Shown in pieces: positions 1,194-58,376 of a stretch of 64,000 nucleotides of DNA; position 1 is the first letter of the stretch; each line of letters begins with the position of its first letter. The notes beneath the pieces were generated by a model. The model saw only the letters and a list, made by a program, of their open reading frames with translations, ran no database searches and was not told the origin of the DNA. The DNA comes from Dehalococcoidia bacterium. Its GTDB lineage: Bacteria > Chloroflexota > Dehalococcoidia > SM23-28-2 > RBG-16-64-32. The DNA is taken from positions 52-64,051 of the forward strand of contig DAOUBD010000054.1 in the NCBI GenBank assembly GCA_034432935.1, in the 5' to 3' direction. A program made the translations under genes and the position numbers.

Positions 1194-4147
1194 GAGCTCA
1201 CCTGACCTCGGGCCACCTCGCCCACATACAGCCACGGTTGAAGGCCAGGGTCGCCCCGCTTGGCGGCGAACTCATCCTTGCGCCGGCGCGAGCAGATGCG
1301 GTCGAACTCACAGTACTTGCAGTTGGCGGACTCCTCCGAACCGTTGCCGTTCCCCGGCACGGCCGGGAAGGCGCCAGCCCTGATGCCCCGCATGATAGCG
1401 GCGATGGTCTCTTCGAAGCGCCGATGGATCTCCGGCGTCCAGGCGAAGCCACGCGTCTCGTAGTTCCCCTTTCCAGTGACGAACCAGTAGAAGGCCTCAG
1501 CCTCCGCGCCGGCCGCCGCGGCTGCCAGGTACGCCGGCAGTTGGAGGCGCGTACCATCGGCCAAAGGGTTGGCAGCCCCTATCTTTTCGTACCGTTTCGG
1601 CGTGCCGGTCTTATAGTCGATGATCCATGCCCGCCTGCCGTCCGGCGTGCGGTCGATCCGGTCTACAACGCCGCGCAGGGTAACACCCGCCACCAGGATC
1701 GGGGGCATAGAGTATTCCAGCTCGGCGGGCACAGCGCCAGTCTCCTGGCGAAATCTGGTGTCCTCTTCCAATAATCGTTCAAGATCGGCCCTCAGGCTGC
1801 GCGCTTCGTGCTGGGCGAAGACTTCGAGGCCTGTTAGGCCGCTACTCTTAGCGCTCCGGAGTGCGTCATCGAGAATGTCCAGCAAGGCCATCCTGTCCCT
1901 GTCGGCCCACGCTTCCCCGGGCGCCGGGCGCCCCCGCGCCTTCTGGTCGCTAAAGAACCGGTACAGGACGCGATGGACGAGATGGCCCCGAGCCAGCGGA
2001 TCCATAACGTGCCGCTCTTCTGGCTCCTCAACTACGTTGAGGCGAAGGATCGCAGAGCAGAGGTACCGAAACCCGCACTCGGCATATTTTTCGAGGGATG
2101 TGGGGGACGCGACGGTCTGACCGGGCGACGGCGGCAAGGGGCCCACGTTGCCGTCCCACTCTGTGAAGCCAGCGCCCCGTCTGGCGCGCAGCATCGCGGC
2201 GACCCTTGCCAGGTGCTGGCTGGGAGGCGGCTGGCCAGTTTGGCGGCCCTCGACGGCGTAGCGGATGCCCAGCTCCCCTTGGTCCACGACTGGGCCTTGC
2301 AGCATCGCCGCAAGGGGCGAAGGCGGGCGGCGGAGCCAGGCAGCGCGCGGGTGCTCGCGGAGGTCTCTAGAAGTACGCACCGCTGGGTCCAGGGCGGAGG
2401 CGGCCTGCACCAGATGCGGAGATGGGTAGTACTCCCGGCCAGTGCGACCCTCATATAAGGGGGCAGACCAGACCAGGGTTCCACCGGAGGCCGAAGCTTG
2501 GGCCCGGGACACAGCGGCTCCAGCGCGCTCCATCCGCAACCGGGCGTCTTCTATGAAGGGGGCCCGCCGGCGCAGATCCTCCCACACGCGGTCTTCTACC
2601 AGACCGTCAACCCCGGGGCCTGGCGGAAGAACCCCCTCGTAGGCCCCGCAGAGAACGACGAAGGGGTAGCGCATGCCGGCGGCACGGCGGTAGTCAGCGA
2701 TGACGACGCCTTCCCCCATCTTTTCCGGCCGCTGCACCGCTACCTCGAGGTCCGCCCGTAGCGCCTCGGCGAAGGCGGAAAGGTCGAAGCTACCGCCGAC
2801 AGCGTCTATCGTGCCCAGTTGGTCTATTTCCCGCTGTATGCTTTGAAACGTTGCTTCATCGTAGGCGGGGTCGATGTAGTCCGCGACGACCGCCTTGAAG
2901 GACGCTACGAAGCCGCCCGCGGCCTGCGGCTGGCGGAGGGGCTCCAGCCTGGAGATGAGGGCTCGTACGACCTCGTGCAGTGCCGCTGCCTCGTGAGCCA
3001 GAAATTCGGCGCGAAGTGCTCTGCTCTCTTCTCCCTTTCGGTAGGACTCCTGCTTCTCTTCGCTCATGCCGGCCTGGAAGGCACGTAGAGCCGCCTCCCA
3101 GCGCTCAGCGCCCCCAGTGACGCCAGCGTCCCGTGACACCCGGTCCCACTCGGTGGCCATCACCCCCTGGAAACCGCCGGACGATGGGATGCTCTCGCGC
3201 AGAGCCGGCGAACGGAGAACCTCGATCATGGCGACGCGGGAGTAGTCAGTACCGGGGAGCCGGGCCAGCCCGAGTACCGCGCGTCCCACAGCGCTCTCGA
3301 TGAGGGGGGTACCCGGCAGCGGAACCGTGGGTACTCCCGCGGCATCGAAGGCATCCCGCAGAAGTCTCGGATAGGCCCGGTCCGCTCCGTGGAAGACAGC
3401 GATGTCGTCGATGGCGACGCCAGCCTCCATCGCCGCCAGGACCTCCCGCACCACCTCCCGCGCCTCGCTGGCGGGGTCCGGCGCAAGGACGACGCGACTC
3501 TCCCTCGGTGAAGGCGCCGGGTCATCCATCGTCTCGTATCGTCGTGCGGCCTTCTTCAGGGCGTCGAGGAAGGCCTGCGCGCCCGCCGAGAGGGCATCGG
3601 GCGGCGCCACGTAGACGTGTCCTAGGTCGGCCAAGACCGCTGGCCGGCCTGAGGCCACCTCCTGGGCCGCCGCCTCCAGCAGGTCTTCCTGGTCGTAGAA
3701 GCCCGCCATCGCTTCCCGGTAAAGGCCGTACAGACGTAGCACCTCGTCCATCTTCGCGCCGTACGAACGCGGCACATCGGAGGGGCCGCGAATGCCCCCG
3801 CGGCGGAGGCGCTGAAAGATGCGGCGGAGGGCACGGGCGTGGCCGGGCAGCTCTCTCACTCTGAGTAGCGGGCCTCGGGACTGGGCCGCGACCTGCCGGG
3901 CCAAGAAGTCGCCGATGGGCCTGGCCAAAGGGCGCAACCCCGCTGCGGTTAGGCGACCGCCGGCAACGAGCTCGGCTAGGCGCGGCAGCACCTCAAAGCG
4001 CACGCCCGCGTAGGGGCCAAGCCTGGCCAGCCGTCGCCGCATCTGGAGGGCCGCGTCGTGGGAGGGCGCGATGACGGTTACCGGCGCTAACGGGTCGCGC
4101 TTCCGGTCCAAAGCTATCTGGGCGAGGACGGAATCGACGTCAGGCAT
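1190..4147 (-). CDS. AddB/AdnA-like helicase-nuclease subunit; C-terminal RecB-family PD-(D/E)XK nuclease with Cys cluster; N-terminal ATPase motifs degenerate
   Basis: 985-aa ORF. The C-terminus has IIDYKTG and CKYCEF..C (AddB/Cas4-like nuclease with Fe-S cysteines). N-terminal segment PVTVIAPSHDAALQ resembles the AddB N-terminus but lacks GxGKT. Translationally coupled to the downstream SF1 helicase. Confidence 0.7.
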   Translation of the reverse strand: MPDVDSVLAQIALDRKRDPLAPVTVIAPSHDAALQMRRRLARLGPYAGVRFEVLPRLAELVAGGRLTAAGLRPLARPIGDFLARQVAAQSRGPLLRVRELPGHARALRRIFQRLRRGGIRGPSDVPRSYGAKMDEVLRLYGLYREAMAGFYDQEDLLEAAAQEVASGRPAVLADLGHVYVAPPDALSAGAQAFLDALKKAARRYETMDDPAPSPRESRVVLAPDPASEAREVVREVLAAMEAGVAIDDIAVFHGADRAYPRLLRDAFDAAGVPTVPLPGTPLIESAVGRAVLGLARLPGTDYSRVAMIEVLRSPALRESIPSSGGFQGVMATEWDRVSRDAGVTGGAERWEAALRAFQAGMSEEKQESYRKGEESRALRAEFLAHEAAALHEVVRALISRLEPLRQPQAAGGFVASFKAVVADYIDPAYDEATFQSIQREIDQLGTIDAVGGSFDLSAFAEALRADLEVAVQRPEKMGEGVVIADYRRAAGMRYPFVVLCGAYEGVLPPGPGVDGLVEDRVWEDLRRRAPFIEDARLRMERAGAAVSRAQASASGGTLVWSAPLYEGRTGREYYPSPHLVQAASALDPAVRTSRDLREHPRAAWLRRPPSPLAAMLQGPVVDQGELGIRYAVEGRQTGQPPPSQHLARVAAMLRARRGAGFTEWDGNVGPLPPSPGQTVASPTSLEKYAECGFRYLCSAILRLNVVEEPEERHVMDPLARGHLVHRVLYRFFSDQKARGRPAPGEAWADRDRMALLDILDDALRSAKSSGLTGLEVFAQHEARSLRADLERLLEEDTRFRQETGAVPAELEYSMPPILVAGVTLRGVVDRIDRTPDGRRAWIIDYKTGTPKRYEKIGAANPLADGTRLQLPAYLAAAAAGAEAEAFYWFVTGKGNYETRGFAWTPEIHRRFEETIAAIMRGIRAGAFPAVPGNGNGSEESANCKYCEFDRICSRRRKDEFAAKRGDPGLQPWLYVGEVARGQVSS

Positions 4148-4341
4148 TCCTCAATGGACCGCAGGAGGAAGTTACGGGATGGCCGCCCTTAACGTATGGG
4201 CACCCGCTACGCCTGTCAACGGGGCTATGTCACGACTGGCGTGCGGACATTATGGCAAGAACGTGGCGAGAGACGCATGAGACACTGGCCTCGGAAAACG
4301 CGCCAGCGGCAGGCTGCGCCTTACCGAGGAGGCGATACCGG

Positions 4342-4737
4342 ATGTCCGGCAAGGTCATAGTGTTGGTATCAGATCTTGACGACGCCAAGCACGGCGAGAT
4401 CAGCATAGTGGAGAACGCCCAGAAGGCGGCCCGGCTCGTGGAGACGCTTCTAGAAGCTGGCTTCGAGCAGGAGCGGATTCGCATCTTCGACGGCACTGAG
4501 ATGTCGATGCACGTCACCCACAGGCCGGTGGTTGCCCTCATGGAAGCAGGTCTGGATGAAGAGGACCGGCACAGCCGCGGGGCCGAGCGGGCCCAGACGG
4601 AGGAAGCACCCGCCGAGGCGGAAGGCGAGCCAGAGGAGGTAGCCCCGAAGGCTAAGGCAGAGCTGGTGGAAGAGGTGGCCGCGGTCCCATTCTTCAAGGA
4701 CGGCGTACGGTTCTCAACCCTCTTCCGGCCTGCCTAG
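4342..4737 (+). CDS. hypothetical acidic protein
   Basis: ATG at 4342 preceded by GAGGAGG; protein-like composition with an E/A-rich tail; followed by a stem-loop terminator. A competing antisense ORF (4230..4697) was judged artefactual. Confidence 0.4.
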   Translation: MSGKVIVLVSDLDDAKHGEISIVENAQKAARLVETLLEAGFEQERIRIFDGTEMSMHVTHRPVVALMEAGLDEEDRHSRGAERAQTEEAPAEAEGEPEEVAPKAKAELVEEVAAVPFFKDGVRFSTLFRPA

Positions 4738-4761
4738 AGGGCGAAATACATCGCGCCCGGC

Positions 4762-4795
4762 GCCCCTAGGAGCGAGGACATAATGTCCTCGCTTC
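4762..4795 (+). terminator. stem-loop (GCGAGGACA-TAA-TGTCCTCGC) followed by a T-rich run
   Basis: Perfect 9-bp inverted repeat at 4762-4782, then TTCCTCTTGTATT; a rare AT-rich run in this genome. Confidence 0.4.
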
Positions 4796-4934
4796 CTCTT
4801 GTATTGCAGCGGTTGGCCTAGAACACGGCATCTGGGCTCTAGGCGTCTGGCCCCGCTGCTGAATCTTGCGACTGAGGACAGCATCCCTTCCTGTATTGGC
4901 CCGCTGGTGCTATAGTTAACGGAAACTGGCGCTT

Positions 4935-6242
4935 ATGATGACCGAACGAGGAAAGAGCCCCGCAAACGCCCCTGCGCCAGCGGACCAGCCTCCAGCCGGC
5001 CCGCCCCCGGGCATGACCATCGAGCGGATGATCCGGGACCGCTACGACGGTAAGGGCGAGCGGGATATCTTCGCCAAGGCGGAGGAGTTCACACTGGTGG
5101 AGCAGGCCCGGCAGTTGGGCCTGTATCCGTTTTTCCAGGCCCTGGACAGCAACGACGGGCCGGAAGGCCAGATCTATGGCAAACGCGTCTTGATGTTCGG
5201 TTCCAACAACTACCTAGGGTTGACCCGCCACCCATACGTCATAGAGGCAGCCAAGAACGCCCTTCTCCAATACGGCACCTCCATGACGGGGTCCCGCTTG
5301 CTGAACGGCAGCACCCACCTGCACGAGGAGCTGGAGGCGCGCATCGCCCGGTTCGTGCGGAAAGAAGCCGCCATCGTCTTCACCACGGGTTATCTGGCCA
5401 ACCTGGGCACCATCTCGGCCTTGGTCAACAAGAGAGCGGTGGCCGTGGTGGACAAGGCGGACCATGCCAGCATTTACGACGGATGCCAGTTGGCCGACGG
5501 TGAAATGGTGCGCTTCAAGCACAACGATCCGGCGCATCTGGACGCGGTCTTGCGGCGCATCGGCCAGAAGGCCGCGCTGGTGGTGGTCGACGGGGTATAC
5601 AGCATGGGGGGCGACATCGCGCCGCTGCCCAAGATTGTGGAGACGGCCCGGCGGCACGGCGCCCGCGTAATGGTAGACGACGCTCACGCCATCGGGGTCA
5701 TAGGCGAGGGCGGCCGCGGGACGGCCTCCCACTTCGGCATAGAAGACCAGGTGGACCTGATAATGGGCACCTTCTCCAAGTCCCTCGCCTCCATAGGCGG
5801 CTTCGTCGCCGGGCCGAAGCGAGTCCTGGAGTGGGTCCGGCACTTCGGACGGGCCCTGATGTTCAGCGCTAGCCTGCCGCCAGCCTCCACCGCGGCGGCG
5901 CTCGCGGCGCTGGACGTCCTGGAGCGGGAGCCCGAGATCGTCGACCGGCTGCGGCGGCTTTCGGCCATGTGGCGGGACGGGCTCCGCAGTCTCGGTTTCG
6001 ACATAGGCCAGTCTCAGACGCCCATAGCTCCCGTGGTAGTGGGAGACGAATATACCACCGTGACGTTCTGGAAGATGCTGCTGGAAGAAGGCGTGTACGT
6101 GAACCCCGTCATCTATCCAGCAGTGCCGATGCGGGAGGCGATCCTCCGCACGAGCTGTATGGCCACCCACACGCCGGAGCAGATCGAGCAAGCGCTGGAG
6201 AAGTTCCGCACCGTTGGCCGGAAACAGGGTCTCATCCCCTAG
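4935..6242 (+). CDS. class II aminotransferase of the alpha-oxoamine synthase family, serine palmitoyltransferase-like (alternatively BioF/KBL)
   Basis: FGSNNYLGL..TGY.AN...VDDAHA..GTFSKSL PLP-lysine region; ~60-aa N-terminal extension as in SPT/KBL; 435 aa. Confidence 0.8.
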   Translation: MMTERGKSPANAPAPADQPPAGPPPGMTIERMIRDRYDGKGERDIFAKAEEFTLVEQARQLGLYPFFQALDSNDGPEGQIYGKRVLMFGSNNYLGLTRHPYVIEAAKNALLQYGTSMTGSRLLNGSTHLHEELEARIARFVRKEAAIVFTTGYLANLGTISALVNKRAVAVVDKADHASIYDGCQLADGEMVRFKHNDPAHLDAVLRRIGQKAALVVVDGVYSMGGDIAPLPKIVETARRHGARVMVDDAHAIGVIGEGGRGTASHFGIEDQVDLIMGTFSKSLASIGGFVAGPKRVLEWVRHFGRALMFSASLPPASTAAALAALDVLEREPEIVDRLRRLSAMWRDGLRSLGFDIGQSQTPIAPVVVGDEYTTVTFWKMLLEEGVYVNPVIYPAVPMREAILRTSCMATHTPEQIEQALEKFRTVGRKQGLIP

Positions 6243-6276
6243 CACTGCCGCAGAGAGCGTCATAGAGGTCGCGCCC

Positions 6277-7392
6277 GTGAGCACGAAGGCCGACCTGGAG
6301 GCCTTCATCCGTCTGCCCTGGCGGCTGTACCAGGGCAACCCCAACTGGTGCCCGCCCCTGCTTCTCCTCCAACGGCAGCTATTCTCGCCCAAGCACAACG
6401 CCTTCTACCAGCACGCCGATGTCCAGCTCTTCCTAGCCCGCAGGGGCGGGCAGCCCGCCGGGCGCATCTCGGCGCACATAGACCACGAGCACAACCGCTT
6501 CCACGGAGAGCGCACTGGCTTTTTCGGTTTCTTCGAATCGGAGGATGACCCCGAAGTGGCCGGCGCTCTCCTCTCGGCGGCAGAGGAGTGGCTACAGGCG
6601 AGGGGCATGGATCGGGTCCGGGGACCGATGAACTTCTCAACCAACGGCGAGGTCGGCTTCTTGCTAGAGGGGTTCGATTCACCCCCTGTCATCATGATGC
6701 CCTACACCCCGCCGTACTACCTGCGCCTGGTGGAGGGCTGCGGCTACCGCAAGGCCAAGGACCTCTACGCCTGGTACTGGCGCATGCAGCCGGTGCCGCC
6801 GGGGCCCCCCGCTCGCATGGTAGAAGAGCTGAAGGCCCGGCCCGAAGTGAAGGTGCGGTGGGCCCAGAAGAGCCGGTTCAAGGCTGAAGTGCGGACGATC
6901 CTCGACCTGTACAACGATGCCTGGAGCGAAAATTGGGGGTTCGTGCCGGCAACGGAGGCCGAGGCGGCGCAAATGGCCCGGGAGCTCAAGCTGATCGCCG
7001 ATCCGTACCTCGTGCCCTTCGTGGAGATCAACGGGGTGCCGGCTGGCGTGGCCCTGGCCGTGCCCAACCTCAATGAGGCCATCCACGACCTGGACGGCAA
7101 GCTGCTGCCCTTCGGCTGGCTGAGGCTCCTCTGGCGGCTCAAGGTGAAACGCCTCAGGAGCGGGCGGCTGCTCCTCCTGGGCATCCGCAAGGAGTTCCGC
7201 ACGCGTCGCTACGCCGGTCTCGCCTATCTGTTGTGCGACGCCGTCTACCGCGGCGCCATCGCTCACGGCTACCAGTGGGGCGAATTCTCCTGGACGCTGG
7301 AGGACAACGGGCTGATCAACGCCCTTATCACCAAGATCGGCGCCCACATGTACAAGAAGTACCGGATCTACGAAAAGGCTCTGGCGCCATGA
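6277..7392 (+). CDS. large GNAT-superfamily N-acyltransferase (candidate bacterial ceramide synthase-type enzyme)
   Basis: ~371-aa ORF in frame with TTG 6214; I prefer GTG 6277, just after the upstream stop. Sequence FFGFFESEDD..MNFSTNGEVGFL is GNAT-like; stop overlaps the next gene start (ATGA at 7389). Confidence 0.55.
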   Translation: MSTKADLEAFIRLPWRLYQGNPNWCPPLLLLQRQLFSPKHNAFYQHADVQLFLARRGGQPAGRISAHIDHEHNRFHGERTGFFGFFESEDDPEVAGALLSAAEEWLQARGMDRVRGPMNFSTNGEVGFLLEGFDSPPVIMMPYTPPYYLRLVEGCGYRKAKDLYAWYWRMQPVPPGPPARMVEELKARPEVKVRWAQKSRFKAEVRTILDLYNDAWSENWGFVPATEAEAAQMARELKLIADPYLVPFVEINGVPAGVALAVPNLNEAIHDLDGKLLPFGWLRLLWRLKVKRLRSGRLLLLGIRKEFRTRRYAGLAYLLCDAVYRGAIAHGYQWGEFSWTLEDNGLINALITKIGAHMYKKYRIYEKALAP

Positions 7393-8369
7393 AGGTCTTG
7401 GTCACCGGGGCATCGGGCTTTTTGGGGTCCCACGTCGCCGAAACCCTTGCCGGGTTGGGCCACGAGGTCAGGACCCTCGTGCGGAGCACCAGCAGCCGGG
7501 CGTTCCTCACCTTTCCCCGCGAAGAAGCCGTGGGTGACGTTACGCAGCCGGAGACGCTGGCGGCCGCTGTAGCTGGCGTCGACGTAGTGGTGCACGCGGC
7601 GGGATTGGTCAAGGCGCGTTCGGAAGCGGAATTCGCGTCGGTGAATGCGCGGGGCACAGCCAATCTTATCTCTGCCATCGAGGCTCACGCCCCCGGCCTG
7701 AAACGCTTCATCTACATTTCGAGCCTGGCGGCCCACGGCCCCAGCGAAGACGGCCAGCCGCGCCCGGCCGATGCCCCGCCGAGGCCGGTGACTGCCTACG
7801 GGCGCACCAAGCTGGCAGGCGAGGAGATCACCAGGGCTTCGTCCCTGGCCGCCCGCTCCGTAATCTTCCGCCCCCCGGTTATCTACGGACCGCGGGACCC
7901 CGCCCTTGTCCCCTTCTTCCGTCTGGCCCGCATGCGCCTAGCTCCGCTTCTCATGGGTGGTTCCAACCGCATCTCCATCGTCTACGTCGACGACATAGCC
8001 TCGGCCATCGCCCTGGCGGCTACCGCGGAGGCGCCGGTGGCGGGAAAGACCTACTGCCCCGAAGACGGTCAGCCCCATACGTGGCGAGAGCTGTTAGCAG
8101 CGGTCGAACGGGCCACCGGCCGGCGTACGCTGCGCCTCGGCGCGCCCCGCTGGGCGTTCTCCGCTGCTGCCGTTGCTAGTGAAGCCTTCGGCATGCTCCT
8201 GCGCCGGCCCGTTTCCCTCACCCGCGAGAAGGTGCAGGAGATGGCCGAGCCGCACTGGGTGTGCTCTGCCGAGTCGCTGCGCCGGGACCTGGGGTGGGCG
8301 CCCAAAGTGGACATATGGGAGGGTGCCCAGCGGACCTGCGACTGGTACCGGCAGCACGGTTGGGTCTGA
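7389..8369 (+). CDS. NAD(P)-dependent epimerase/dehydratase-family SDR (candidate ketosphinganine/oxidised-ceramide reductase)
   Basis: MKVLVTGASGFLGSHV Rossmann motif; 326 aa; ATGA coupling to the GNAT gene. Confidence 0.75.
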   Translation: MKVLVTGASGFLGSHVAETLAGLGHEVRTLVRSTSSRAFLTFPREEAVGDVTQPETLAAAVAGVDVVVHAAGLVKARSEAEFASVNARGTANLISAIEAHAPGLKRFIYISSLAAHGPSEDGQPRPADAPPRPVTAYGRTKLAGEEITRASSLAARSVIFRPPVIYGPRDPALVPFFRLARMRLAPLLMGGSNRISIVYVDDIASAIALAATAEAPVAGKTYCPEDGQPHTWRELLAAVERATGRRTLRLGAPRWAFSAAAVASEAFGMLLRRPVSLTREKVQEMAEPHWVCSAESLRRDLGWAPKVDIWEGAQRTCDWYRQHGWV

Positions 8370-8371
8370 GG

Positions 8372-9451
8372 TTACACCCGCCCGTCCTCAACCGCCTCGT
8401 CAGCTGGGATGCCGTTCGAGGGGCCTGGCCGGGGCCGGAGAAAGAGGAAGTCCGAGGGCGTCATGCGCAGGGCGACGGCCGCCAGCGGGCCGGAAGCGAA
8501 GTACGGGAGCGCCAGCATGACGTGGCTGAAGATCGAGAAGGCGGCGGCCTTGCTTTCATCGACCCCAAAAGCCACCAGAAGCCCCGCGATCGCCAGCTCG
8601 AAGACCCCCAGGCCGGCCTGGGTGAGGGGAACAGAAACAGCTATCGTGGCGGTTACCACTACCAGCAGGTAGACGGCGGGCGAAAGGTCAAGCCCCAGGG
8701 CGCGGCCGCAGGCGTAGTACATGAGGGCCTCGCATAGCCACGCTGCATGAGAAGTCCAGGCCACCGTGAACATCGCCCCCGGCCTGCGAAAGGCCTGGAG
8801 CCCTTGTCCAAAGGCACGGATTTCCACGGCTATGCGGGCCCGCCAGCGGCCTTCAGGCTGGCGCTGGGCAACTGCCGGGGCGGCAGCATGCCGCGCTAGC
8901 CAGCGCGCCGCCGCCAGGCCTACGGCCAACACGAGGCCATAAACGAGGGCCAAGGGCCACAGAAAGCGCGCCTCCTGGTGAAGCACCAGGCCCAGGATGA
9001 TGAAGGTGCAAAAGGCCACGATATCGGTAAGTTTTTCCGAGAGGAGCGTCGCGATAATGCTGGAGGCGCTGAGGCCCGTTCTGCGGCGTAGGAACTGCAC
9101 GCGCAAGAACTCCCCGGCCCTTAGGGGGAACGCTAGGTTGGTGGCCACCCCCACCACCGCGGTTAGGAACAGGAAGGTCAGGCTGAGGCGCCGCATAGGA
9201 GCGAAGAACTGCCGCCAGCGGATGGCCCGGAACCAATCTGACGCTAGGTTGGCGGCAAAGGCCAGCGGCAGCCACCACGGGTTGGCAGCCTCCAGCTCCT
9301 CCCTCACGGCCCCGATATCGACCCGCCACAAAAGCCCGCCCAGGAGGAGTGAGGCGAGGGCCAACTGGGCCAGGAAACGGGCGAAGGGGAAGCTCCGGCG
9401 GAGGAGGCCAGGTGCGGCTACCGCCGCGGCTTCGGTGGGATACTCCATCAC
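8372..9451 (-). CDS. integral membrane protein, lysylphosphatidylglycerol-synthase TM-region-like (flippase-like UPF0104)
   Basis: 359 aa, about 8 hydrophobic helices; convergent with the SDR gene (3-bp gap). Confidence 0.55.
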   Translation of the reverse strand: MMEYPTEAAAVAAPGLLRRSFPFARFLAQLALASLLLGGLLWRVDIGAVREELEAANPWWLPLAFAANLASDWFRAIRWRQFFAPMRRLSLTFLFLTAVVGVATNLAFPLRAGEFLRVQFLRRRTGLSASSIIATLLSEKLTDIVAFCTFIILGLVLHQEARFLWPLALVYGLVLAVGLAAARWLARHAAAPAVAQRQPEGRWRARIAVEIRAFGQGLQAFRRPGAMFTVAWTSHAAWLCEALMYYACGRALGLDLSPAVYLLVVVTATIAVSVPLTQAGLGVFELAIAGLLVAFGVDESKAAAFSIFSHVMLALPYFASGPLAAVALRMTPSDFLFLRPRPGPSNGIPADEAVEDGRV

Positions 9452-56526: not shown

Positions 56527-56808
56527 ATGTTCCTGGCCCGCGTTTACGTCACGCTCAAGCCGACGGTGAACGACCCCCAGGGGCTGACCATCAAGGGGGC
56601 GTTGCACTCGCTGGGGTTCGCGGACGTCGAGTCCGTCCGCGCCGGGAAATACATGGAGATACGGCTGAAGGCGAAGGACAGCAAGGCGGCGGAGGAGCAG
56701 GTGCGGGATATGTGCCGTAGGCTTCTGGCGAACCCGGTGATCGAGGACTTCCGGTACGAGATAGAGGAGGGGAAGGCGGCGCGCTCCCGCGCCGGCCGCC
56801 GCCCCTGA
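56527..56808 (+). CDS. purS: phosphoribosylformylglycinamidine synthase subunit PurS
   Basis: VYVTLKP.VNDPQG..LANPVIEDFRYEIEE matches PurS. The last 10 codons and the stop lie inside the left 54-bp repeat copy. Confidence 0.85.
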   Translation: MFLARVYVTLKPTVNDPQGLTIKGALHSLGFADVESVRAGKYMEIRLKAKDSKAAEEQVRDMCRRLLANPVIEDFRYEIEEGKAARSRAGRRP

Positions 56809-56829
56809 CGCCGGCTCCGGGCGCCGGCG
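56776..56829. repeat. left copy of a 54-bp direct repeat (53/54 identical to 57625..57678)
   Basis: GCGGCGCGCTCCCGCGCCGGCCGCCGC(C/T)CCTGACGCCGGCTCCGGGCGCCGGCG read directly in both places; the copies lie 849 bp apart. Confidence 0.85.
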
Positions 56830-56927
56830 ATCGCCGTATAGCCGGAACGGCCCGATTCCGCTCTCGGTTGGAGCTTCGCGGGTGCCACGGCCGGCGTACC
56901 GGCACGAACCGAGCCCCCAGCGGCCGT

Positions 56928-57413
56928 CTACGATTGACCGCCAGCCCGTTCGACCGCCCTCAGACCGGCATTTGTTAGCTCCCAGACGCCTCGCTGCGAG
57001 TCCTTCCGCAAGAGGCCCTGGTTGACGAGGTCGTAGCGCGCCCACTGGGCGGTGTTGCGCCACCGAATGCCGCCGGTACTCAAGGGCTGTTTGTCGACCT
57101 CGCCAAGAATGGCGTCGACCTTCTGTCCCACCAGGGTGAGGACGTCGTCGACGCGACCCTTTCCGCCCAACTCGTAGAGCGACTCCAGGATGGGCCGATA
57201 GTAGGCGCTCTGGGGAAGCTTTTGCCCTCTGGGGAGCTTCGGCGCACCGAGGCGCCGGCCACCCACACTTCCACGTGTGGTGGGCCGCAACCCTCGGCGC
57301 CTCTCTGCGTAGTCGAGGAGCCTTCGGAGAGCATCCGCCGGAGTGTCTTCCAGCGGCTCGGCCCACCGCTTCAGGCGCTCCCACGTGGCGTCGTCAATCC
57401 TAATAACCGGCAC
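56928..57413 (-). CDS. small DNA-binding protein: N-terminal SeqA-N/RHH-like domain - R/G/P-rich linker - C-terminal Mrr-N-like winged helix
   Basis: GTG 57413, 6 nt after AAAGGAGGG. N-terminus MPVIRIDDATWERLKRW..PADALRRLLDY resembles SeqA N-terminal MKTIEVDDELYSYI..SASDILRRMLK. C-terminus YYRPILESLYELGG..IRWRNTAQWARYDLVNQGLLRKDSQRGVWELTNAG matches the Mrr N-terminal wH pattern. 161 aa. Confidence 0.55.
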   Translation of the reverse strand: MPVIRIDDATWERLKRWAEPLEDTPADALRRLLDYAERRRGLRPTTRGSVGGRRLGAPKLPRGQKLPQSAYYRPILESLYELGGKGRVDDVLTLVGQKVDAILGEVDKQPLSTGGIRWRNTAQWARYDLVNQGLLRKDSQRGVWELTNAGLRAVERAGGQS

Positions 57414-57444
57414 CGTTCCCTCCTTTCATTTGTTACCTTGTTAC

Positions 57445-57464
57445 ATTGTAGCACACGCTGTCAA
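57445..57464 (-). promoter_or_regulatory. extended -10 promoter (TGcTACAAT) with upstream TTGACA, in an AT-rich leader
   Basis: Minus-strand read: GGGGACTTGACAGCGTGTGCTACAATGTAACAAGGTAACAAATGAAAGGAGGGAACG-GTG. Confidence 0.45.
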
Positions 57465-57624
57465 GTCCCCGGATGAGACTGTCCGCCGGCCTCAGGACCG
57501 GTCGGCCGGCCCCGCGTTCGACACGCCAATAGGGGGACTCCTGAGATCGTATCGAGAGCGCAGCGGCGCCCTCAGGACACCGGTCGAAGACCTGGGCCGG
57601 AAAGCGTGGGCGGGAGGCCCACGC

Positions 57625-57678
57625 GCGGCGCGCTCCCGCGCCGGCCGCCGCTCCTGACGCCGGCTCCGGGCGCCGGCG
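57625..57678. repeat. right copy of the 54-bp direct repeat
   Basis: See the left copy; single C/T mismatch. Confidence 0.85.
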
Positions 57679-57779
57679 CGCACCGAGCCGGCGCGCACTG
57701 AGGCGGCGGCGCTATGACGGGAAGCCTCCTCGAGCGAGCAGCGCTGGCGGGTGCAGGCTCCGGCTTCTAGGCCGTCGCC

Positions 57780-58376
57780 CTAGAGAACGTCTTTGGTGCT
57801 CGGTATCTCGCCCCCCATGCGGGGGTCGATGGCGACGGCTGCGGCGAGGGCGCGGGCCAGGGCCTTGAAGACAGCCTCGGCGCGGTGGTGGTCGTTGGCG
57901 CCGGAGAGAAGGCGGGCGTGCAGGTTCAGGCGGCCCTCCTGGGCGAAGGCAGCCAGGAAGTGCTGGATGTTCTCGGTCGGAAGCTGTCCGATGTCGTCGC
58001 GGCCGAAGGCGAGGTCGAGAGCGGCGTACGGCCGGCCGCCGAGGTCCACGGCCACGAGGGCTAGCGCCTCGTCCATGGGCACAACGGCGTGGCCGAAGCG
58101 GGCGATGCCACGGCGCTCCCCCAGCGCCTGGTCCAGAGCCTTGCCCAAGACCAAACCCACATCCTCCACCAAGTGATGCGGGTCACGCTCGATGTCCCCC
58201 TGGGCCTTGATGGTTATGTCCAACAGGCTATGGCGGGCCAACGACTCCAACAAGTGGTCCAGCATCCCGATGCCGGTGGCCACATCGTAGTGGCCTCTTC
58301 CGTCCAGCACCAGGCCCACGGTCACTTCCGTCTCCCGGGTCTTGCGCGAGACCTGGGCGCTACGCTTACTTGCCAA
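57780..58376 (-). CDS. hisB: imidazoleglycerol-phosphate dehydratase
   Basis: RETEVTV..DGRG..HHLVEDVG.. IGPD motifs. Confidence 0.9.
   Translation of the reverse strand: MASKRSAQVSRKTRETEVTVGLVLDGRGHYDVATGIGMLDHLLESLARHSLLDITIKAQGDIERDPHHLVEDVGLVLGKALDQALGERRGIARFGHAVVPMDEALALVAVDLGGRPYAALDLAFGRDDIGQLPTENIQHFLAAFAQEGRLNLHARLLSGANDHHRAEAVFKALARALAAAVAIDPRMGGEIPSTKDVL

Follow-up and report, generated by a model that had tools for sequence, protein, structure and literature searches.

We analysed a 64,000-nucleotide stretch of the genome of a Dehalococcoidia bacterium (GenBank assembly GCA_034432935.1, contig DAOUBD010000054.1). We call this stretch the window, and positions are counted from its first letter. 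A gene on the minus strand at 56928–57413 encodes a 161-amino-acid protein in which a flexible linker connects a SeqA_N-like ribbon-helix-helix (RHH) domain to an Mrr_N winged helix. The protein belongs to a widespread, uncharacterised family whose domains are known, in a combination that has not been described before. The gene arrived recently, as part of a ~0.8-kb unit that also includes its promoter and operator and that was inserted in the terminator region separating purS from hisB. At most of the family's loci (41 of 50), the gene is preceded by an array of GTWAC pentamers (W is A or T), and the RHH head is most likely an operator-binding autorepressor, not only an oligomerisation domain. 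The gene and its control region contain these features:

56928–57413, minus strand: coding sequence of the RHH(SeqA_N-like)–linker–Mrr_N protein, 161 residues, GTG start (open reading frame list and sequence)
57294–57413, minus strand: residues 1–40, RHH domain of the SeqA_N kind, with a strand at residues 2–7 and helices at 8–17 and 25–39
57216–57293, minus strand: residues 41–66, disordered linker rich in Arg, Gly and Pro, of variable length across the family (model confidence and family alignment)
56949–57206, minus strand: residues 70–155, Mrr_N winged helix (PF14338 match, AlphaFold2 model and family alignment)
57419–57423, minus strand: ribosome-binding site GGAGG, 5 nt 5′ of the GTG (sequence; kept in relatives)
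57432–57452, minus strand: candidate operator, with pentamers GCTAC (57452–57448), GTAAC (57444–57440) and GTAAC (57436–57432) at an 8-bp period (from its uniqueness in the window and its presence in the family)
57445–57453, minus strand: extended -10 element TGnTACAAT, which is the -10 hexamer TACAAT (57450–57445) and the preceding TGC (57453–57451) (sequence; TGT-TA(C/T)AAT in relatives)
57459–57464, minus strand: TTGACA, the -35 hexamer of the family (family comparison)

An alignment of the 130 nt that precede the start codon in the window and at 15 genome loci with relatives of the gene has a common TTGACA and a palindrome-like GTTAC-N3-GTAAC. With at most one mismatch, this motif was present at 13 of the 15 loci (against one background match in 194 kb) and at 28 of 32 further metagenomic loci. 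The exact form, GTWAC-N3-GTWAC, lies within 140 nt upstream of the gene at 41 of 50 loci, at a median position of -38 from the start codon, and it occurs nowhere else in the 364,926 nt of those loci. Eighteen loci have a third unit in phase. Similarly, the window has no such pentamer array outside of 57432–57452. The loci that were scanned span Chloroflexota, Acidobacteria, Planctomycetota, Spirochaetota and Alphaproteobacteria. The usual layout is TTGACA, 17 nt, and TGT-TA(C/T)AAT, with the first pentamer over the -10 hexamer and the rest at 8-bp steps; in the window, too, the -10 hexamer overlaps the first pentamer. GTWAC is its own reverse complement except for the central base, that is, a 5-bp pseudo-palindrome, and therefore the units are seen in either orientation. 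This symmetry would suit an RHH dimer, which has two-fold symmetry.

To find which half of the protein the motif goes with, proteins that have only one of the two halves can be compared. A second family has the winged helix with a different N-terminus: these are small nuclease-free proteins of ~190 amino acids from many phyla, with a helical (coiled-coil) N-terminal part (...NEVNxAFEILLEEIE...). (They are encoded at loci L016–L084 and at many of L121–L164.) Their Mrr_N domains are ~50% identical to those of the RHH+Mrr_N family, including the basic arm (K/R)LP(R/K)GxKT, and the operator motif was found at 0 of their 58 usable loci. Conversely, stand-alone RHH proteins of 64–70 amino acids, with the head and an acidic tail and without Mrr_N, keep the GTAAC pentamers in their promoters, as GTAAC-N3-GTCAC and a further GTAAC, in two distinct contexts. 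(One context, L171–L176 with the gene at 3001–3213, is a multi-copy unit that also has a Fic gene, with transposases on its flanks; one 1.5-Mb contig carries it twice. In the other, L177, the gene at 2376–2570 has a resolvase gene on one side and, downstream, an SNF2/NOV_C helicase gene on the other.) So, because the motif is absent at the coiled-coil+Mrr_N loci and kept at the stand-alone RHH genes, it follows the RHH head and not Mrr_N. In RHH proteins such as Arc, MetJ and CopG, residues of the strand read the bases, and Arg5 on the strand of our family is nearly invariant. Because the motif follows the head, Arg5 is so well conserved, and RHH strands read bases, we infer that the head is both an autorepressor that binds the operator and a dimeriser. 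The first-pass annotation of this sequence had described the head as an oligomerisation module; that role can stand, but most likely not as its only one, given the operator that tracks the RHH domain and the near-invariant Arg5.

The same annotation had reported a strong promoter that looked constitutive, and this does not hold up. TTGACA (57464–57459) and TACAAT (57450–57445) are separated by 8 nt in the window, instead of the 15–17 nt (mostly 17) in relatives; judging by this spacing, TTGACA is misplaced for a sigma-70-type promoter. A scan for consensus promoters found no canonical sigma-70-type promoter at the window gene, and the operator overlaps the promoter. The extended -10 with its TGn, the ribosome-binding site and the operator are all intact in the window copy, and the his operon is transcribed towards the gene. 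From these features, expression of the window gene seems possible but uncertain.

The open reading frame itself is as previously annotated (161 residues, minus strand, GTG start), and the layout of two domains joined by an Arg/Gly/Pro-rich linker is kept across the family, with a linker of variable length. In an AlphaFold2 model of the entire protein, which was built with 32 relatives in the alignment, the predicted local distance difference test score (pLDDT) is 84.5; a model of the N-terminal domain alone has 82.4. The model of the entire protein runs from an extended N-terminal segment through helices at 8–17 and 25–39/40 to a disordered linker (residues 44–56, with pLDDT under 50) and the winged helix. 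The C-terminal end of the linker is a conserved basic arm, (K/R)LP(R/K)GxKxPQ, in which G63 is conserved. Searches of the protein against Pfam, NCBIfam and PADLOC identified no nuclease or other effector family, in agreement with the first reading of the sequence. In particular, the PD-(D/E)XK nuclease domain Mrr_cat is absent, and the protein stops 6 residues past Mrr_N. Because it has no nuclease or other effector, the protein cannot restrict DNA. (Rfam found no RNA families within the window.)

The protein had been labelled an orphan, without a described family. In a search of 5.8 billion protein sequences, we found at least 256 clusters of full-length relatives, so there is a conserved family, although we found no description of the RHH+Mrr_N architecture in the literature. 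Nearly all of the best 120 of the 256 align over 93–100% of the query, at 38–70% identity, and they are ~150–260 amino acids long. The N-terminus is nearly invariant in the family alignment (MPVIR(I/V)...W.RLK.WA.PLED.P.D), and the MPVIRI start of the window protein is common to the whole family. In the databases, the relatives are named only "hypothetical," "winged helix-turn-helix domain-containing protein," or "Mrr-like N-terminal domain." The matches in genomes are chiefly from Dehalococcoidia and other Chloroflexota, with others in Acidobacteria, Gemmataceae, Spirochaetales, and metagenome-assembled genomes (MAGs) of Kiloniellaceae.

The head has the strand-helix-helix topology within ~40 residues that defines the RHH (MetJ/Arc/CopG) superfamily. 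Its kinship with SeqA_N, which was claimed earlier from a few matching residues, is real at the level of the superfamily and is seen through relatives; the window protein's own Pfam score contributes nothing, as it has no match to SeqA_N (PF17206, cut-off 23 bits) even at E ≤ 10. SeqA-N (1xrx) is the top natural match in the PDB for a profile of the family's N-terminus, with residues 1–38 aligned to 1–38, at a non-significant E = 0.19. Aligning the same profile to E. coli SeqA with hhalign gave a probability of 78%. (The SeqA sequence that we used agrees with the 1xrx alignment.) A member of the family, P0221, reaches SeqA_N with 27.8 bits, and it also carries the SeqA C-terminal domain, at 25.1 bits, which is just under the cut-off of 25.5. 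Members with Mrr_N score 15–19 bits for SeqA_N, under the cut-off. Searching 1.84 billion representative sequences with the head profile gave 1,985 clusters; among 96 of the longer matches, 54 have Mrr_N and 2 reach SeqA_N in Pfam. Together, these comparisons support homology to SeqA_N at the superfamily level, by way of relatives, and not membership of the window sequence in that family. Because the RHH head is fused to several different C-terminal domains, it appears to be a portable module. Besides the SeqA C-terminal domain of P0221, at least two recurrent unnamed C-terminal domains that Pfam does not recognise are found on proteins with this head. (Examples of other fusions are P0172, P0199, P0202, P0245, P0252 and P0269, and also P0219, P0230, P0238 and P0249.)

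The strongest direct match of the head is to the N-terminus of the T4SS effector SepA family in NCBIfam (NF047386; E = 4e-9, positions 1–45). The score of 36.5 bits is well below the cut-off of 110 for this 182-position model, so the window protein shares only the N-terminal domain and is not a member. The match covers residues 1–45 of the protein (57279–57413), and the rest of SepA is unrelated to it. SepA of Brucella is described as having no known domain, and it is encoded in a horizontally acquired region (PMC4602199). The match suggests that the N-terminus of Brucella SepA is an RHH/SeqA_N-like DNA-binding domain.

The assignment of the C-terminal half to Mrr_N, which had been made from a pattern of residues, is confirmed by Pfam: PF14338 matches residues 70–155 over model positions 3–86 of 87, with E = 3.6e-12 and 46.7 bits (the curated gathering cut-off is 29.5 bits). 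Mrr_N is the DNA-binding domain of the modification-dependent nucleases of the Mrr type. The elements of the winged helix are modelled with pLDDT of 95–98: helices at 68–81, 88–102 and 117–131 and strands at 85–87 and 143–146. The predicted recognition helix is 117–131, and in the family alignment, R117, W118 and R126 in this helix are invariant and N120 and W124 are nearly so. We found no solved structures with sequence similarity to the Mrr_N domain of the window protein. Foldseek, with the full model against the PDB, found only generic winged helices (of the MarR, PadR and IclR kinds), none of them at E ≤ 0.001, and the single match in PADLOC was a weak one to mREase_IV, on the winged helix (E = 0.006). 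Among prokaryotic winged helices, sensing of methyl-adenine has been proven only for DpnI-type proteins (PMC11037411). That the Mrr_N half reads modified or foreign DNA is a speculative analogy.

The evidence for the insertion comes from the flanks of the gene and from two sister genomes. The features at this site are:

56830–57624, no strand: inserted DNA of 795 nt, with promoter, operator, gene and a 98-nt tail (missing from the two closest genomes)
56776–56829, plus strand: left copy of a 54-nt direct repeat, comprising the last 10 codons of purS, its stop codon, and 21 nt that are the left arm of the old terminator hairpin (repeat search and junction alignment)
57625–57678, plus strand: right copy of the 54-nt direct repeat, which with 57678–57693 completes the hairpin 57658–57673/57678–57693 (repeat search and junction alignment)
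57604–57624, no strand: perfect 8-bp hairpin GCGTGGGC-GGGAG-GCCCACGC, at the upstream edge of the insert and abutting the right direct repeat (sequence)
56527–56808, plus strand: purS, the flanking host gene on the target side
57780–58376, minus strand: hisB (IGPD), the host gene on the other side; the his operon reads towards the insert

In the two sister genomes (L169 and L170), alignment across the junctions shows an empty purS–hisB site. These genomes have the closest available relatives of PurS (89–90% identical) and the same gene order, with DinB_2 and purS followed by the convergent hisB-hisC-hisD, and the gap between purS and hisB is only ~90–110 nt. Because the repeat sequence is single at the empty sites, the window has a 795-nt insert and a 54-nt duplication of the target. 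The two copies are identical at 53 of 54 positions, and there is no further copy in the window. An intact terminator hairpin stays on the hisB side of the insert. The earlier suggestion of a mobile cassette is thus borne out by the empty sites. The G+C content of the insert (0.66) is equal to that of the genome, and the G+C content at third codon positions is 0.77 for the window gene versus 0.92 for purS and 0.86 for hisB. There is no recombinase within the insert. It holds this one gene, with no toxin gene beside it, so it is not a type II toxin-antitoxin locus. Hairpins 5′ of the promoter, like the one at 57604–57624, are frequent in relatives.

We considered other explanations for the repeats. 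A cassette of an integron or of a cluster of attC sites lacking an integrase (CALIN), which the repeats at L009 had brought to mind, would have an attC site (R″/L″...L′/R′, RYYYAAC...GTTRRRY) at its end and an IntI nearby; the repeat in the window is instead a target duplication that is single in empty sites. Furthermore, the repeats at different loci are unrelated, the window has no AAC/GTT cores at its repeat, and the insert has no recombinase. The repeat is not an assembly artefact: the copies differ at one base, and similar structures at L003, L004 and L085 (with 63-nt repeats) were assembled independently three times. We also asked if the basic C-terminal extension of PurS (~10 residues, …GKAARSRAGRRP, at 56779–56808 in the window and also in P0273 and P0274; missing from most PurS, which have 82–86 amino acids) might be part of a repeat element. 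Because relatives without the insert carry the extension too, the 54-nt repeat is target sequence and not the end of an element. Flanking repeats are not a trait of the whole family, as they were found at only 4–5 of ~41 testable loci.

Other loci also indicate that the unit of promoter, operator and gene is clearly mobile. Between the window and its closest relative, DNA similarity is confined to the promoter and the gene, and the gene sits at different places in a backbone that L166 and L167 share. (In L167, a 2.5-kb island at 4208–6730, with three unknown small ORFs and the RHH+Mrr_N gene, lies between carboxylesterase and BNR-repeat genes. Its counterpart in L166, 2419–2480, is only ~60 nt, and the junctions are too diverged to define the ends.) At L015, a ~75-nt hairpin repeat flanks the gene, beside prophage terminase genes; in this Kiloniellaceae MAG, the gene (within 6895–8737) is directly 5′ of the genes for the small and large terminase subunits, in a moron-like position at the prophage end. 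At L009 (5002–6891), in a Dehalococcoidia MAG, three repeats of ~115 nt bound two cassettes. Each repeat has two internal hairpins and inverted ends, AAATCCTTCTC...GAGGAGGATTT. One cassette has a HigB/HigA-like pair (5195–5768), and the other has the RHH+Mrr_N gene and a small zinc-ribbon-like ORF (6547–6735). This array looks like an integron or a CALIN, without canonical attC cores. At eight Dehalococcoidia loci (L087, L096, L098, L102, L104, L107, L005 and L006), the same two G+C-rich hairpins stand on either side of the module: ~100 nt upstream, CCCCCTTCCCTT...AAGGGAAGGGGG and then GAGGGGC...GCCCCTC, and 150–250 nt downstream, in the reverse order, like inverted ends. Some of the bracketed copies have a second small ORF, for a zinc-ribbon-like protein or a basic peptide of ~40 amino acids.

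In its neighbourhoods, the gene mostly stands alone. It is alone at ~90% of loci, with unrelated and often convergent neighbours, which are usually metabolic genes, transporters and occasional transposases. Apart from near-identical genomes, there is no conserved neighbour across the 50 loci. A PLD-SNF2 helicase adjoins the gene at 4 of the 50 loci (three of them independent). In one of these (L014), a Fic gene lies upstream, and directly 3′ of the RHH+Mrr_N gene are those for the PLD-SNF2 helicase and for a Type ISP-like N6 methylase. Controller (C) proteins of restriction-modification (R-M) systems have a restriction gene downstream in their operon; a defence-like gene in this position, on the same strand, was found only at L014 and, for the stand-alone RHH, at L177, and the window has none. 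So the link to R-M or defence that was suggested before is weak for the RHH+Mrr_N family, whereas it is strong for the coiled-coil+Mrr_N sister family. Genes of the sister family adjoin a type IIG-like methylase/nuclease gene (at 10 loci), DUF262, SNF2-helicase and HsdS genes (examples are the upstream gene at 1155–5258 of L046 and the downstream gene at 6455–8227 of L026), and to judge by this, its members act as accessory proteins or regulators of R-M systems of a kind not described so far. As for phages and plasmids, a pattern-based scan of IMG/VR and a search of GenBank phages found no relatives of the window protein, plasmids had partial matches to Mrr_N only and no relative, and PHROGs gave nothing significant.

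We propose that the window carries an inserted, self-contained unit whose product is an RHH dimer that represses its own gene from the GTWAC array and whose tethered pair of Mrr_N domains binds modified or foreign DNA. We give this proposal, as a whole, an even chance of being correct. The N-terminal RHH domain of the SeqA_N kind would probably hold the protein as a dimer. Dimers would most likely bind the pentamers, with their 8-bp period, over the gene's own -10 hexamer, and this binding would repress the protein's own synthesis, much as MetJ, omega and ParG act on arrays of short repeats. The next steps are speculative. The flexible, basic linker may tether two Mrr_N winged helices that are free to bind DNA elsewhere. 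Because Mrr_N serves modification-dependent nucleases and the sister family is found in R-M operons, the likeliest target would be modified or foreign DNA. As the protein has no nuclease, it might occupy or sequester such DNA instead of cleaving it, and titration of the protein by this DNA might de-repress the gene.

Several observations weigh against this proposal. The window protein itself does not reach SeqA_N in Pfam, the exact motif is missing at 9 of the 50 loci (most of these have near-matches), and the 8-nt spacer implies that the window copy may be poorly expressed. The comparison of domains is an imperfect control, in that the Mrr_N of the coiled-coil family is only ~50% identical, and the stand-alone RHH genes provided just two independent promoters. 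The gene has no conserved partner and no enrichment of methylases beside it. Finally, winged helices often bind unmodified DNA (PMC11037411).

So we also considered that the protein might be an ordinary local transcription factor, with the RHH and the winged helix as two parts that bind DNA or a cofactor, which controls itself and any adjacent gene and has nothing to do with modification. The conserved operator in its own promoter is what such a regulator would have, Foldseek matches its winged helix only to generic regulators, and the gene at L014 and the stand-alone RHH gene at L177 directly precede defence-like genes on the same strand, as a controller would. However, the gene is alone at ~90% of loci, among unrelated and often convergent neighbours; the motif is found only at its own promoter, both in the window and in 365 kb of loci; and the recognition-helix residues that are typical of Mrr_N are strictly kept. 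We consider this explanation rather unlikely. A leftover controller, from a defence or toxin-antitoxin operon that lost its effector, could persist because autorepression makes it harmless. But hundreds of intact stand-alone copies have their own promoters and conserved residues in both domains, and the window's insert holds this gene alone, which implies that it arrived alone, so this history seems quite improbable.

Another possibility is anti-restriction: a nuclease-free Mrr_N dimer might act as a decoy by occupying the modified sites that the host's Type IV (Mrr-like) enzymes attack, thus shielding modified mobile DNA and letting the module spread as a selfish accessory gene. An Mrr_N without a nuclease, in a mobile, self-contained unit that is present in some genomes and absent from their sisters, would fit, as would the copy beside prophage terminase genes at L015. 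On the other hand, IMG/VR, GenBank phages and plasmids yielded no relative in our searches, and the gene is found on chromosomes, without ties to any larger mobile element; we view a decoy as improbable. Whatever the family does, the window copy might be silent or decaying if the deletion in the spacer disabled its promoter. The short spacer (8 nt instead of 17) and the lack of a canonical promoter favour this, but the ORF is intact, TGnTACAAT, the ribosome-binding site and the operator are kept, and the his operon, which reads towards the gene, could supply transcripts. That the copy is dead therefore strikes us as very improbable. Returning to our proposal of an autorepressor with tethered Mrr_N domains, it could be extended to a nuclease-free counterpart of Type IV restriction that uses the logic of SeqA. 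In this extension, RHH dimers or arrays would tether pairs of Mrr_N readers that coat modified or foreign DNA and sequester it, or that protect it against Type IV nucleases, with the titration loop setting the level of the protein. The minimal mobile module would enter terminator hairpins by a route that is independent of recombinases or acts in trans, that leaves target duplications of 54–125 nt, and that is common to other cargo (such as HigBA). We think that this full scheme is distinctly unlikely.

The protein resembles several known systems. SeqA is a negative regulator of replication initiation in E. coli, and our protein is laid out like it: the first ~40 residues form a domain of the SeqA_N/RHH kind, from which a flexible linker leads to a DNA-binding domain at the C-terminus; other members of the family reach SeqA_N in Pfam, and P0221 has both SeqA domains. 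Unlike in SeqA, the C-terminal domain is Mrr_N instead of SeqA_C, which was seen only in P0221, so nothing suggests hemimethylated GATC as its target. Furthermore, a conserved Arg is found on the N-terminal strand where SeqA has Glu, and a conserved operator accompanies the domain. SeqA-N is not known to bind DNA; from these differences, the RHH head of our family probably does. Most hosts belong to Chloroflexota, and the gene is not a core one but accessory and mobile. With Mrr, which is a Type IV enzyme, our protein shares an Mrr_N domain above the Pfam cut-off and the conserved R-W-x-N...W-x-R recognition helix, but not Mrr_cat or any other effector.

Among RHH proteins, operators made of short repeats are known for MetJ (8-bp metboxes), omega (7-bp heptads) and ParG (8-bp spaced boxes). 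The candidate operator resembles these, with two or three short, symmetric units that recur every 8 bp across the promoter of the gene itself; but our protein has an additional tethered winged helix, no co-repressor site, and no ParA partner. Like the coiled-coil+Mrr_N proteins, it has an N-terminal domain of an oligomerisation type and no nuclease, and it differs from them in its RHH head, its GTWAC operator and its stand-alone gene, while the sister family is in R-M and defence operons. Like the C proteins of R-M systems, it would be a small autoregulator that acts on an operator within its promoter, and its gene is sometimes 5′ of defence genes, although C proteins are known as Xre-type helix-turn-helix proteins that always accompany a nuclease gene. 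Like a phage moron, the unit of promoter, gene and hairpin is autonomous and lies between unrelated genes, but we found no phage or plasmid copies. And like SepA, with which it shares the first 45 residues, it is encoded in horizontally acquired DNA.

The conserved GTWAC operator is newly recognised. The filled site and its empty counterparts, which differ by the insert and a 54-nt duplication and show no recombinase, offer a tractable example of the entry of single-gene accessory modules into bacterial chromosomes. If the protein is only an autoregulator, then the finding is an ordinary one. But sensing of modification by Mrr-kind and DpnI-kind winged helices is known only from fusions to nucleases, and here a family with hundreds of clusters in several phyla joins an Mrr_N-kind sensor to a repressor or oligomeriser instead. 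This family would show what such a sensor does when no nuclease is attached, whether it reads epigenetic marks, silences DNA, or counters restriction.

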